Positions 3,129-61,250 of a stretch of DNA of 64,000 nt are shown here, piece by piece. Both the position numbers and the translations under genes were made by a program. Position 1 is the stretch's first letter. Each line of letters opens with the position of its first letter. Source of the DNA: Octopus vulgaris (lineage: Eukaryota); contig OX597832.1 of the NCBI GenBank assembly GCA_951406725.2, positions 47,430,001-47,494,000 of the forward strand. Reading direction: 5' to 3'. The notes below the pieces were generated by a model, which saw only the letters and a program-made list of their open reading frames with translations, was not told where the DNA came from and did no database searches.

Positions 3129-3251
3129 ATATTTTCGATTAATGGATATATGTTTGGGCTACTTGGTTTCATGCGTAGTCGGGGTATAAAAAATTTAGTA
3201 CCAAATCCATTTTTTGGTTACTTAATAAATTATCATTATATATATATATAT

Positions 3252-3598
3252 TGGTCGAAAGACTCCTGTTGTTACGTCCTATTATTATTATTATTATTAT
3301 TGTTATTATTATTATTATTATTATTATTTGTATTTATATTCGTATTATTATTATTTTTTTTTTTTTTTAGTATTTATATTCGTGTAACATCGTCCGTTTT
3401 TCGGTCCTTGTTTCGTATACATTCGATCCTTTTTCCGTAGCTTAGTTTTTCCATGGGGCTGGCCGGATCGGAGCGATCTCAAGATTAATCAGCCGAAATT
3501 GCGAGGATGATCCGGTTCTTGACTGAAGATTAGAGGCTTCGAATGACCCGTCCGTGTTTTTTGTATCGTCTATTTGAATGTTTTGCGTTCTTGTCCCA
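3252..3598 (+). mobile_element. (TA)n-embedded element with scrambled hammerhead-like core, copy 1
   Basis: Flanked by (TA)n; homologous in reverse to 43382-44100; contains CCGAAA and CTTGACTGAAGA boxes with complementary helices. Confidence 0.7.
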
Positions 3599-29502: not shown

Positions 29503-29822
29503 TCATCCTTTGTCGTTTATTTAATTTATTATTTTTGCTCTGTACTTGACTGAGGTTTTGTTCTGAAGCGTATGTCTAATGAGTTCTAACACCAGGTTAT
29601 TAATATCGCAATAACTCGCATATCCACATTATGTTATACATTTGCTAGCTATTCCCGGTGGCTTCTCGCCGCTGGCGCCACCAAAAGTGAACAATATCAT
29701 CGTGAAAGGCACGAAATTGTTGTGATATTTTGGACGATTACTGATGAGGAATAAGCAATGTCTTGTATGTGAATTTTCCGTTTGTTGTGTTTATGTTAAA
29801 TTTTTGGAACATAATATTGACG

Positions 29823-36107: not shown

Positions 36108-36342
36108 TATATATATATGCATGCATGTATGTATCTGCATATATGTGTATAAACATGTATTATAGTTGATCTTATGTGAACAATAAAACGTTCATAAACA
36201 TCTTATTTCATTTTAATTATAGCTAATATCTTCAATTTTAATTTAGTATCACCTTTTATGATCAGCTTTTTGTCCTTTGTCTTTTATGTAGATGACAATG
36301 AGTAGGGGTTTCCTGCTGTTTGGTGGTAAGGAGGAAACCTTA

Positions 36343-36758
36343 GGGCGGGGAGCTGGCAGAATCGTTAACACGTCGGTCGAAATGCTTAGCGGTATTTCGT
36401 CTGCCGTTACGTTCTGAGTTCAAATTCCGCCGAGGTCGACTTTGCCTTTCATCCTTTCGGGGTCGATTAAATAAGTACCAGTTACGCACTGGGGTCGATA
36501 TAATCGACTTAATCCGTTTGTCTGTCCTTGTTTGTCCCCTCTATGTTTAGCCCCTTGTGGGTAATAAAGAAATAGGTATTTCGTCTGCCGTTACGTTCTG
36601 AGTTCAAATTCCGCCGAGGTCGACTTAACCTTTCATCCTTTCGGGGTCGATTAAATAAGTACCAGTTACGCACAGGGGTCGATGTAATCGACTTAATACC
36701 TATGTCTGTCCTTGTTTGTCCTCTCTGTGTTTAGCCCCTTGTAGGTAGTAAAGAAATA
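36343..36758 (+). mobile_element. SINE family A, dimeric
   Basis: Flanking repeat GGTAAGGAG(G/A)AAACCTT. Confidence 0.92.
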
Positions 36759-36965
36759 GGTAAGGAGAAAACCTTCAAGGTGGAACATTATGAGTATTCC
36801 GAAGTAAATTCTAGGATTTTAGTAAGATTTATTCCCTCTGAGCTCCGTAACATTTTTCCTCATTTCCATATATATCCTTCTCGTTGAGGCTGGCGTATAA
36901 TTTTGGTAAGCCACGAACTTACACAATGTTTGTGTGTAACAGTTTGTGTGTGTGTGTGTGTGTGT

Positions 36966-42062: not shown

Positions 42063-42322
42063 CATATCAGTACAACTTCTCCCTTTTACAACGACAATGT
42101 TTTCATAACGCAAGGGATTCTGGGACGCCAGTATTCTGATACGCTGTTTCTCGTCAGCCAGAAATAGCCTGACCGTTGAGCTTAAACAAACAACTTTGCT
42201 TTCTATTTCTTTGCTGGATAAATTCTTTGCTGATCAGTGCTTATTTCTATCAAAAGATGAAAAAAAAAAATTCTTACATTATTTACATTTGACGGATATT
42301 TGTTCTCATCTTCTTTGTTGTT

Positions 42323-42368
42323 GACACAACGTTTCGGCTGATATACCCTCCAGCCTTCATCAGGTGTC
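42323..42368 (-). ncRNA. Minimal type I hammerhead ribozyme motif, PLE-type
   Basis: GACAC-CTGATGA-A-GGCTG-(10 nt)-CAGCC-GAA-ACGT-T-GTGTC: intact core, perfect stems I and II, palindromic stem III. Confidence 0.8.
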
Positions 42369-42407
42369 TTAGGGAAATTTCGAACCTGGGTTCTCATTAC
42401 TGTTGCT

Positions 42408-42804
<397 letters not shown>

Positions 42805-43201
42805 TTAATTGCGCTTTTTAAAGGAAAGAAAACCAGATGTTATACGTATAAGCGAAAATGTCATCACTGTCTTAGAAACGAAACAACTCGTAAAATGTTC
42901 GTCGTTAAATACTTTTGCCTTTCGCCTTCTAAATATTTGAAATCTGTCGAACAACTAATCCATTAGTTCTGTAGTTATTCCTAATTGTTTATGCCCGTAG
43001 GGACACAAATAATCTCCTTTAAACCAACACGTCACGTAATGTTTATCAACATATCTCTCACTATATACGTATGAGTCTGAATGTATACGCATACACACAC
43101 ACACACATGTATGTATGTATATATGTATTTATGTATGTATGTATGTATGTATATATATACATATATATATACATATATAAGCAAAAGTACATCAGATAAA
43201 A

Positions 43202-43250
<49 letters not shown>

Positions 43251-43285
43251 CATATATAAAGCAAAAGTACATCAGATAAAAATAA

Positions 43286-43376
<91 letters not shown>

Positions 43377-43381
43377 TATAT

Positions 43382-44100
43382 AGAACAAAAAAAACACAAT
43401 AGAGGTCATTAAAACGTTCAGACAGACGACACAAAGGCGGACAAGAGAAACAACAATTAGAAGGATGGGCAAAAAGAAAGTCGGGTCATTCTTGGCTTTC
43501 TTTCATCAGTCAAGTACCAGAAGTCACGACCATTTCGGACAGTTACACATGAGATTGTTCGATTTGGTTTTTCCCGAAAATAGTCTAAGCTAAGAGCATT
43601 GGACCCCTTTGTAAGAAAGCTAGCGAATGTGTACGGCAACAAAGACGAAAAAAAACCAAAATACGGAGAACATGGTACACAATTGCGAATACATATATAT
43701 TTATATAAATAAAAAAAAATCGGAATAAGAATGTAACGGACGACAATAAAAGCATAAGGACAGGTGGACGATACAAAGACGGACAGCAAAACCAGGTCGC
43801 ACCATTCGTGGCTTTCTATTCATCAGTCAAGCTTCAAATCATCACTACAGTTTCGGCCTGTTACACTTAAGATTGTTCAAAATTGGTAGGCCACAAAAAT
43901 CTAAGCTAAGGGCATTATATTTTTGGAAGAAAGCGAGCGAATAAGTGCGACAGCAGGGACAAAAAGGTGAGAAAACGGAGAAAATGTTACACGATTAAAA
44001 ATACAAACAGCAAGAATAACAACAGGTGTCTTTCGACTAAAAGGACAAGTTAGGTTAAGCTGGCGTGTGAAGCGGAAGCCATACGGCAACAAACATAGAT
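43382..44100 (-). mobile_element. Two diverged tandem copies of the scrambled-hammerhead element
   Basis: 43382-43692 and about 43715-44100, TA-flanked; both keep CCGAAA...CTTGACTGATGA on the minus strand. Confidence 0.7.
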
Positions 44101-44106
44101 GAAAGT

Positions 44107-44376
44107 CAGTGGTTAGGGCGGTCGTAGGATCGCGGTTTCGATTCCCAGACCGGGCGTTATGAGTGTTTATTGAGCGAAAACACCTAAAAGCTCCACGACG
44201 CTCCGGCAGGGGGTGCTGATCCATGCTGTACTCTTTCACCACTCTTTCTCTCACTCTTTCTTCTGTTGGCCTGCTCGCTTAGCCAGCGGGGTGGCGTCAT
44301 TCGAAGGCTAAAACAATGCGAACGCATTGTGACCAGCGATGTGTAACAACATCTGATGGTCTGGTCGGTCACGTGA
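44107..44376 (+). mobile_element. SINE family C, tail type i
   Basis: Homolog of 1719-2026. Confidence 0.85.
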
Positions 44377-54571: not shown

Positions 54572-54802
54572 AGGCGGCGAGCTGGCAGAAACGTTAGCAC
54601 GCTGGGCGAAATGCGTAGCCGTATTTCGTTTGTCGTTACGTTCTGAGTTCAAATTCCGCCGAGGTCGACTTTGCCTTTCATCCTTTCGGGGTCGATAAAT
54701 AAAGTACCAGTTACGCACTGGGGTCGATGTAATCGACTTAATCCGTTTGTCTGTCCTTGTTTGTCCCCTCTATGTTTAACCCCTTGTGGGCAATAAAGAA
54801 AT
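54572..54802 (+). mobile_element. SINE family A, monomer
   Basis: Sequence identity to other A copies. Confidence 0.92.
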
Positions 54803-54887
54803 ATATATACAGGACAGGCAACGGGTTAAGCTCATAAAGACTACCATAATAAATATTTTCTTTAAGCTGCTCCGAAATCTCAAAGTA

Positions 54888-57278: not shown

Positions 57279-57696
57279 TATTTCTTTATTACCCACAAGG
57301 AGCTACACAGTGAGGGGGACAAACAAGGACAGACAGACGGATCAAGTCGATTACATCGACCCCAGTGCGTAACTGGTACTTAATTTATCGACCCCGAAAG
57401 GATGAAAAGCAAAGTCGACCTCGGCGTAATTTGAACTCAGAACGTAAAGACAGACGAAATACCTATTTCTTTATTACCCACAAGGGGCTAAACACAGAGG
57501 GGACAAACAAGGACAGACATAGGTATTAAGTCAATTACATTGACCCCAGTGCGTAACTGGTACTTAATTTATCGACCCCCGAAAGGATGAAAGGCAAAGT
57601 CGACCTCGGCGGTATTTGAACTCACAACGTAACGCAGACGAAATACCGTTAGGCATTTCGCCCGGCGTGCTAACGTTTCTGCCAGCTCGCCGCCTT
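57279..57696 (-). mobile_element. SINE family A, dimeric
   Basis: Flanking repeat AAGGTAGCCA(T/A)ATACC. Confidence 0.9.
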
Positions 57697-59388: not shown

Positions 59389-59800
59389 CTATTTCTTTAC
59401 TACCCACAAGGGGCTAAACACAGAGAGGACAAACAAGGACAGACAGATTAAGTCGATTACATCGACCCCAGTGCGAAACTGGTACTTTATTTATCGGCCC
59501 CGAAAGGATGAAAGGCAAAGTCGACCTCGCGGGATTTGAACTTAGAACGTAGCGGCAGACGAAATACCTATTTATTTACTACCCACAAGGGGCTAAACAC
59601 AGAGAAGACAAACAAGGACAGACAAACGGATTAAGTCGATTATATCGACTCCAGTGCGTAACTGGTACCTATTTTATCGACCCCGAAAGGATAAAAGGCA
59701 AAGTCGACCTCGGCAGAATTTGAACTCGGAACGTAACGGCAGACGAAATACGGCTACACATTTCGCCCGGCGTGCTAACGTTTCTGCCAGCTCGCCGCCC
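59389..59800 (-). mobile_element. SINE family A, dimeric
   Basis: Flanking repeat ATGTAG(G/A)CCTAGATAT. Confidence 0.9.
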
Positions 59801-60851: not shown

Positions 60852-61250
60852 GTCGGCGAGCAGGCAGAATAGTTACGACGCCAGACAAAACACTTAGCGG
60901 TATTTCGTCTGCCTTTAAGTTCTGAGTTCAAGTTCCGCCGAGGTCGACTTTGCCTTTCATCCTTTCGGGGTTGATAAAATAAATACCAGTTACGCACTGG
61001 GGTCTATATAATCGACTTAATCCATTTGTCTGTCCTTGTTTGTCCTCTCTGTGTTTAGCCCCTTGTGGGTAGTAAAGACATAAATATTTCGTCCACCTTT
61101 AAGTTCTGAATTCAAGTTCCGCCGAGGTCGACTTTGCCTTTCATCTGTTAGGGGTCGACAAAATAAGTACTAGTGGAACACCGGGGTTGATGTAATCAAC
61201 TAACCCCCTCTCCTAAAATTGCTGGCTTTGTGTCAAAATTTGAAACCATT
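60852..61250 (+). mobile_element. SINE family A, dimeric, second unit with an alternative tail
   Basis: Tail CCCCTCTCCTAAAATTGCTG...TGTGTCAAAATTTG also seen at about 28885-28948. Confidence 0.8.

Follow-up and report, generated by a model that had tools for sequence, protein, structure and literature searches.

Hammerhead ribozymes have been treated as assemblies of three blocks, C, G and S, none of them assumed to be interruptible, which gives six possible orders (Eckert 2023, PMC10085705). According to the available parts of that study, the permuted orders SGC, CSG and, weakly, GCS were validated; they came from metatranscriptomes of viroid-like RNAs, the genomes of known organisms yielding only one weak GCS candidate, and SGC forms cleave slowly, at 0.007–0.19 per min. 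The SGC-1 oligonucleotides in its supplement run IIIa-UC-Ia, IIb-GAAA-IIIb, interaction strand, Ib-CUGAUGA-U-IIa, interaction strand. For hammerheads generally, the accessible text of Perreault 2011 lists only small core insertions (PMC3088659), and the hammerheads of Penelope-like elements (PLEs) also conserve a single bulged nucleotide after A9 (PMC4209133). One group of PLEs, the Naiads, has been reported to be without canonical hammerheads, some members carrying core strings that match no descriptor (Craig 2021, PMC8557442). In the sections available, this lack serves as an argument that hammerheads may be mere passengers which PLEs can do without; consensus notes mark 'HHR_core' and 'HHR_half_core' in Naiads, and a fold of the type described below is not proposed there.

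We analysed a 64-kb stretch of microsatellite-rich, non-coding, animal-type DNA (the window; no N, GC about 24–47% per 2 kb) and found four copies of a hammerhead-like domain, copies 2 and 3 in tandem on the minus strand and copies 1 and 4 on the plus strand. In all four, the strands follow one another from 5′ to 3′ as P0a, P5, IIa, P4a, IIIa-UH, Ia, IIb-GAAA-IIIb, P4b, Ib-CUGANGA and P0b. P4 is a fourth helix that links the far ends of helices I and II, and P5 is a hairpin between P0 and IIa that folds intact in copies 2, 3 and 4. P0 begins 0–2 nt after A9, and P5, where intact, stops 0–2 nt before G10.1. The core elements CUGANGA, GAAA and U16.1-H17 and the A15.1-U16.1 and G10.1-C11.1 pairs are kept in 4/4 copies. 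Spacings are identical or 1 nt apart across copies (21 nt from G10.1 to H17, 17 nt from H17 to G12 and 27–28 nt from G12 to C3), and MAFFT aligns the four domains with one single 1-nt gap. Helices I, II and III together hold 15/15 pairs in copy 1, 14/15 in copy 2, 12/15 in copy 3 and 13/15 in copy 4. The strand directly 3′ of CUGANGA makes at best 2, 1, 3 and 2 of 5 pairs with IIb in copies 1 to 4; it therefore cannot be IIa and forms P0 instead.

The earlier note had described copies 2 and 3 as decayed tandem copies with a scrambled hammerhead core, and all the helices that it quoted are found at their minus-strand places. Copy 2 (43800..43945) forms 23/26 scored pairs. Its P0 5′ arm (43942–43928) is followed by the P5 hairpin (43925–43894), and the P0 3′ arm (43817–43804) begins 2 nt past CTGATGA, with 5/5 pairs. 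Helix II (IIa 43892–43888, IIb 43859–43855; GGCCT/AGGCC) is complete at 5/5 and leads into GAAA (43854–43851). Helix III (IIIa 43876–43872, IIIb 43851–43847; ACAAT/ACTGT) has 4/5 pairs, an A·C mismatch at 16.2-15.2 adjoining the core. The predicted cut falls after C17 at 43871, and helix I (Ia 43870–43866, Ib 43831–43827; TTAAG/CTTGA) is again 5/5, Ib running into CUGAUGA at 43826–43820. P4 (P4a 43886–43880, P4b 43840–43834) is the weak helix that the note had seen in one of the copies, with 4/6 pairs.

The same domain in copy 3 (43487..43630, minus strand) forms 21/26 pairs, with one mismatch each in helices I, II and III, in keeping with the decay and single mismatches proposed for the pair. 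Here the P0 arms (43620–43614 and 43501–43495) form 7/7 pairs, starting 1 nt past CTGATGA, so that the outer helix lies within the 1–2 nt given by the note in both copies; P5 occupies 43605–43582. Helices II (IIa 43574–43570, IIb 43541–43537; GGAAA/TGTCC), III (IIIa 43558–43554; ACAAT/ATGGT) and I (Ia 43552–43548, Ib 43514–43510) each have 4/5 pairs, around GAAA at 43536–43533, C17 at 43553 and CUGAUGA at 43509–43503. P4 (P4a 43568–43562, P4b about 43522–43516) contains the ACCA/TGGT that the note had read, with 4/6 pairs in register.

Copy 1, already copy 1 of the earlier note, forms 26/26 pairs (domain 3420..3545, plus strand; IIa-to-CUGAAGA span 3457–3529). It comprises IIa 3457–3461, P4a 3462–3469, IIIa 3473–3477, C17 3478, Ia 3479–3483, IIb 3490–3494, GAAA 3495–3498, P4b 3509–3516, Ib 3518–3522 and CUGAAGA 3523–3529, and is enclosed by P0 (3428–3432 with 3532–3536). 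Loose contig ends at 3436–3438 and the alignment indicate that it is without about 18–19 nt of the P5 5′ arm present in other family members. Copy 4 (domain 29638..29762, plus strand; IIa-to-CUGAUGA span 29675–29747), located by a descriptor written from copies 1–3, forms 24/26 pairs: P0 29650–29655 with 29748–29753 and no spacer after A9, P5 29656–29674, IIa 29675–29679, P4a 29681–29686, A17 29696, GAAA 29713–29716, P4b 29728–29733 and CUGAUGA 29741–29747. It is a distant relative, its domain 68–70% identical to copies 2 and 3 and 51% to copy 1, with unrelated flanks (46–54%). One further feature of P5 is that AGCTTAG, at its top and 3′ arm, is unchanged in copies 1–3 despite diverging flanks (3439–3446, 43908–43900 and 43594–43585); on the loop side of P5, it may make a protein or tertiary contact.

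As read from the sequence, the motif is the non-circular SGC/CSG/GCS cycle opened between A9 and G10.1, that is, started at IIa. With type SGC (HRIMA-1 and variants, in the available parts of PMC10085705) it shares the cyclic strand order, the double-pseudoknot core, the I/II helix made by the strand after IIa and the strand between IIIb and Ib, and a short Ia–IIb linker. The order of site, GAAA and CUGANGA, together with an I/II helix, is that of SGC, and the stem II 5′ strand, which in SGC lies within 0–2 nt of CUGANGA and leaves block C unbroken, does not do so here. The extra nucleotide after A9 is a 1-nt bulge in the validated SGC-1; P0 and P5 fill that place in the window motif. Unlike type SGC, the window motif places IIa and P4a first and CUGANGA last and carries P0 and P5 in addition, and it is a high-copy animal genomic repeat, whereas SGC is described in that source only from metatranscriptomes of viroid-like RNAs. 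Type CSG, represented there by two sequences, has the same cycle and I/II helix and is opened between IIIb and P4b with block C intact.

Other described forms are further removed. Hammerhead types I, II and III are three-way junctions in the order C-G-S, whereas here GAAA precedes CUGANGA and the helices cross. The PK hammerhead (Zhan 2024, PMC11300833) resembles the window motif in having a hammerhead core in unusual pseudoknotted connectivity and an extra helix; according to the sections available, however, its connectivity is pistol-like, its strand order is another one, and A9 continues into a short G10.1-C11.1 stem whose loop forms the pseudoknot, which sets it aside. Minimal PLE hammerheads share the PLE-type repeat context, the extra nucleotide after A9 and the tandem or dispersed copies, but they are C-G-S three-way junctions whose helix III, a very short palindrome, depends on dimer formation, whereas the window motif has a full helix III and a pseudoknotted core. 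An Rfam scan of 42200–44200 returned no hammerhead among 38 matches at E ≤ 10; across the whole window, the 150 of 392 matches listed were miRNA-like microsatellite matches and one viral-UTR model, all below the gathering score. The accessible text of PMC13725137, PMC10162972 and PMC10886601 contains nothing on this strand order. A literature search, with most subscription papers beyond its reach, found no description of it or of a permuted hammerhead in Naiads, and no tested natural hammerhead with a full A9/G10.1 break was found in the literature surveyed.

We asked how far such a pattern could arise by chance in repetitive AT-rich DNA, given that the helices are short, that G-U pairs are permitted and that some chance loci do pass a lenient descriptor. 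Over helices I, II, III, P4 and P0, the four copies keep 94/104 pairs, against 28–53/104 when partners are slid by 1–2 nt, and both sides have changed in 12/26 columns including P0. The anchors of this count were set by hand, so a partner scan and a shuffle test on the MAFFT alignment serve as less biased checks. In that alignment 86.9% of cells pair, compared with 72.3% when shuffled and 23–47% when slid. The apparent compensatory changes of the earlier note were upheld: both sides have changed at 9/21 pairs, in each core helix, and 0/500 shuffles reach any of five measures, a result that is not a p-value because only four related sequences enter it. In the unguided scan, IIb paired best (18/20, the runner-up 12/20) with a strand lying 38 nt upstream of G12, and Ib and IIIb likewise had their top partners (18/20 each, elsewhere at most 12–14/20) where the fold predicts them.

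A strict topology descriptor matched the window three times, at copies 1, 3 and 4, copy 2 being missed because its P4 is weak; in shuffled windows it gave one match in 2/300 global and 6/300 block shuffles and never more than one. GAAA-N14–30-CUGANGA occurs 8 times in the window against 1.2 expected (0/100 shuffles). Among 78 control loci chosen by the family pattern (8 viral and 70 metagenome), 11 pass the lenient descriptor's helix I/III filter and none passes the strict descriptor; we took these loci as chance matches. Against the ribozyme reading, the nested minimum-energy folds of copies 2 and 3 form neither helix III nor P4. The folding z-scores do not stand out either (−0.06, −0.81, −1.68 and −2.56, pseudoknots not counted), although nested z-scores are uninformative for a pseudoknotted RNA. 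On the shuffle, descriptor, partner-scan and covariation controls we reject chance, to which we assign next to no probability.

The family extends well beyond the window. In four public sequencing runs (three organism labels), 6,799, 3,257, 1,899 and 909 contigs map to copy 1, from which we take the copy 1 family to be highly repeated, contig counts not being copy numbers. Mapping requires 80% likeness, so that conserved copies are favoured in the variant table. The 17 variant rows at ≥5% on copy 1 leave the core boxes and helices I and II untouched. The variant at the cleavage nucleotide (3478 C>A) still satisfies the UH rule of hammerheads. The variant 3475 G>A turns a G·U of helix III into A-U, and in P4 two pairs have variant rows on each side; 3465 G>A and 3513 C>T, seen as separate rows, face each other in one of these pairs. 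A further variant, 3501 G>A (3–18% of depth, four runs), would disrupt pairing in helix III, and the table shows no matching change at the partner position.

The same architecture recurs in Naiads. We searched the Naiad file in the supplement of PMC8557442 for four CUGANGA variants; the matches listed (55/62, 27/43, 15/25 and 23/23) take in the whole Naiad section, strings broken by a line end escape such a search, and some record names were assigned from record order. At least 11/54 Naiad consensi show the window strand order with P0 and P5, in differing sequences, as judged by eye with no computed control: Naiad_Bfor, -3_Chem, _Amil, _Aacu, _Anas, -2_Movir, _Plae, _EuTe, _Obim, _Ovul and _Esco. 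By the same inspection, the motif sits near the 3′ end (3′ UTR), after the RT frame where the record was inspected, and helix I of Naiad_Bfor is only 2 bp. Type CSG with the I/II helix was seen by eye in at least six more Naiad 3′ ends, Nbra-1 to -3 among them, from the stretch of the file given to nematodes, compared with the two sequences of the published CSG class. Among the matches listed, the other Naiad consensi, all bivalve records included, show by eye no such motif. The 3′ UTRs of Naiad-1 to -3_Chem share a GC-rich motif a short way past the RT stop, and another conserved block, hairpin-like, occurs in two of the three; neither contains a hammerhead core.

Two short motifs of the window family have no match in the Naiad consensus file, so the link to Naiads is by architecture and not by sequence. 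By eye, several Naiads resemble the window copies in their spacings and in the way P4 starts, with NCC...GGN. Naiads are also described as preferring (TA)n targets (PMC8557442), and the window copies, besides the 3′ architecture found by eye in at least 11/54 consensi, may resemble them in TA bias and partial tandems. Copies 1, 2 and 3 (3/4) end in TA-rich runs, which are (TA)n in copies 1 and 3, in a window full of microsatellites. A 28-nt AT-only, (TA)n-like run at 43693..43720, between the copy 2 and copy 3 units, is a possible insertion target or unit end, and a (TA)n microsatellite at 43210..43374 marks the 3′ end of copy 3, 135 nt after C3. Within the 5′ flank of copy 2 (43946..44040, minus strand), 44017–44040 matches 3251–3274 upstream of copy 1 at 22/24 positions; this block has no counterpart before copy 3, which therefore looks more 5′-truncated. 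Just upstream of copy 2, at about 44360–44105 on the minus strand, lies a dispersed repeat with a tRNA B-box-like stretch that we take to be probably a SINE.

We consider it probable, with reasonable confidence, that copies 2 and 3 are decayed members of a repeat present at high copy, which likely represents the 3′ end of a Naiad-type PLE, and that this repeat carries a hammerhead fold of undescribed order, its intact members being predicted to cut their own RNA. Unlike the Naiad consensi, the window copies lack an ORF, and no match between the two sets was detected at the sequence level. The PLE RT or GIY-YIG ORFs that the earlier note thought might lie adjacent are absent from the window: its 87 ORFs of ≥120 aa include no recognisable protein, Pfam gave 0 relevant matches in the 145 longest of 235 complex (non-repetitive) frames and one weak DUF6556 match below the cut-off, and ARAGORN predicted 0 genes. 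Together with the two unmatched motifs, the missing ORF leaves room for an unlikely but serious alternative, in which the ribozyme reading is right and the family stems from another PLE clade, or from a SINE-like, non-autonomous family that gained the motif on its own. Cephalopod Naiads are moreover described, in the accessible text of PMC8557442, as old remnants, whereas the window family is very abundant. Against such an origin stand the identical architecture, similar spacings and similar P4 start in several Naiads (by eye), the TA-run flanks and the copy that looks 5′-truncated. On mechanism, this alternative overlaps with the Naiad reading that we prefer.

The earlier note also compared the tandem to retrozymes or PLE pseudo-LTRs and suggested that it could yield monomeric or circular RNA. 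Its head-to-tail units of about 320 bp are present, with a core-to-core period of 317 nt (CUGAUGA at 43826 and 43509) and a cut-to-cut distance of 318 nt. Units of about 318 nt fall within the size range of retrozymes. Animal non-LTR retrozymes are described, in the available part of a preprint (10.64898/2026.07.22.740005), as carrying type I hammerheads in tandem units, as more than 80% identical within a family and as derived from PLE pseudo-LTRs. The tandem differs in strand order, which is not that of a type I hammerhead, and its units are not near-identical: copies 2 and 3 share 72% identity over 210 nt (E 2e-23), or 68% in a three-way alignment, and are separated by an AT-only spacer. 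The PLE part of the comparison is thus sustained by the order seen by eye in at least 11/54 Naiads, and the retrozyme part lacks its type I hammerhead. By the features tested, we conclude that copies 1–4 form a real feature that appears from its sequence to be built like a hammerhead and that lies outside types I–III, strict SGC, the PK hammerhead and retrozymes.

Pairing between the units bears on the same point. The 5′ halves pair best with their own 3′ halves (21, 18, 17 and 20 of 21), and the hybrid of copy 3 5′ half and copy 2 3′ half, which is needed to close a copy 2-to-copy 3 circle, keeps 2/5 helix II pairs and 16/21 overall; with helix II thus failing to pair across the units, it is doubtful that a retrozyme producing circles works here. 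It is accordingly improbable that the tandem is a working retrozyme-like unit in which both ribozymes cut to release a 318-nt monomer that then becomes a circular RNA. The head-to-tail arrangement, the 318-nt length, the derivation of animal retrozymes from PLE pseudo-LTRs and a fold that would keep the products paired and so favour re-ligation speak for it, but the 68–72% identity, the AT-only run, the failing hybrid, the mismatches adjacent to the core in both copies and the solo state of copies 1 and 4 speak against. The monomeric or circular RNA of the earlier note thus appears weakly supported from the sequence. The four public runs are contig sets, which say nothing on expression, cut ends or circles; no ends shared by many molecules and no joint indicative of a circle were listed for them. 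Copies 2 and 3 most likely go back to members of diverged subfamilies that inserted separately at a TA-rich site, or to an old duplication there, and either origin fits them better than a working retrozyme does.

A tandem or circular RNA would also make it topologically possible for CUGANGA to use the IIa of the next unit, which would be an ordinary type SGC with an insert of about 230 nt after A9. Covariation, however, ties IIa to the IIb strand within the same copy and not to that of the neighbour, the solo copies 1 and 4 are complete, and P0 and P5 close the break locally, which makes such pairing across units very improbable.

Our preferred reading, a split hammerhead closed within each copy, suggests the following mechanism. 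The A9 and G10.1 ends would be held adjacent by the outer helix P0 and the hairpin P5, so that the ribozyme would hang as a side branch on a P0/P5 rod. An intact copy would fold a standard hammerhead core, P4 taking the role of the loop I/II contact, and is predicted to cut in cis after H17 of AUC/AUA, at 43871, 43553, 3478 and 29696 in copies 2, 3, 1 and 4. Because helix III is a full 5–6 bp, a single copy would fold and cut without the dimer required by minimal PLE hammerheads. Cutting would await transcription of the 3′ end with CUGANGA and P0, and pairing in P0, II, P4 and III would keep the two products together. Within the parental PLE, the cut may trim long tandem transcripts to unit-length templates for retrotransposition, much as processing of tandem transcripts into templates has been proposed for other PLE hammerheads (PMC4209133, in part). 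Copies 2 and 3 themselves probably cut slowly or not at all today.

A different function is conceivable, with little probability in our estimate: the fold may be real and selected yet cleave inefficiently, the A9/G10.1 break disabling or slowing catalysis, and may serve as a binding or priming structure for a PLE protein or cut only with the help of protein. Minimal metazoan PLE hammerheads do cleave poorly in vitro (available text of PMC4209133), and SGC forms are slow, at the rates given above (PMC10085705). Copies and phyla alike, however, keep all catalytic nucleotides, the G10.1-C11.1 pair and a UH site that is always C or A, features for which a purely structural role has no obvious need.

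We lean, with less confidence than we place in the Naiad-type reading of copies 2 and 3, towards a broader proposal drawn from these patterns: that the motif is a seventh natural hammerhead arrangement, in which a split CUGANGA–stem II block is re-closed by two helices, that it is active, that it extends from ctenophores to cephalopods and that it is the missing ribozyme of Naiads. If so, non-circularly permuted hammerheads, instead of being rare forms from viroid-like RNAs, would rank among the most abundant ribozymes of some animal genomes, and type CSG, as seen in nematode Naiads, would have come from the same ancestral motif by circular permutation. Cleavage by the motif would overturn two positions taken in the available parts of the literature, the limit of six permutations that follows from an uninterruptible CUGANGA block (Eckert 2023) and the premise of hammerhead-free Naiads (Craig 2021). 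It would also mean that high-copy permuted ribozymes in animal chromosomes are missed by the Rfam scan used here and by published descriptors, and would offer RNA engineering a naturally split, self-closing ribozyme scaffold.

Two other features were seen in the window. A canonical-order minimal PLE-type hammerhead (CUGAUGA, bulged A, 5-bp stem II, GAAA and a short palindrome) lies at 42371–42320 on the minus strand, 1.1 kb from the tandem; it is the sole canonical-order match of the window scan and is absent from the local Rfam matches. A dispersed repeat of about 270 nt, 86–92% identical between copies, occurs at 36341–36760, 57317–57590, 59500–59800, 15751–16060, 54680–54880 and 60854–61122. 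It is probably a SINE-like family, and it often forms partial tandems with a 184-nt period, visible as paired CCGAAA matches.
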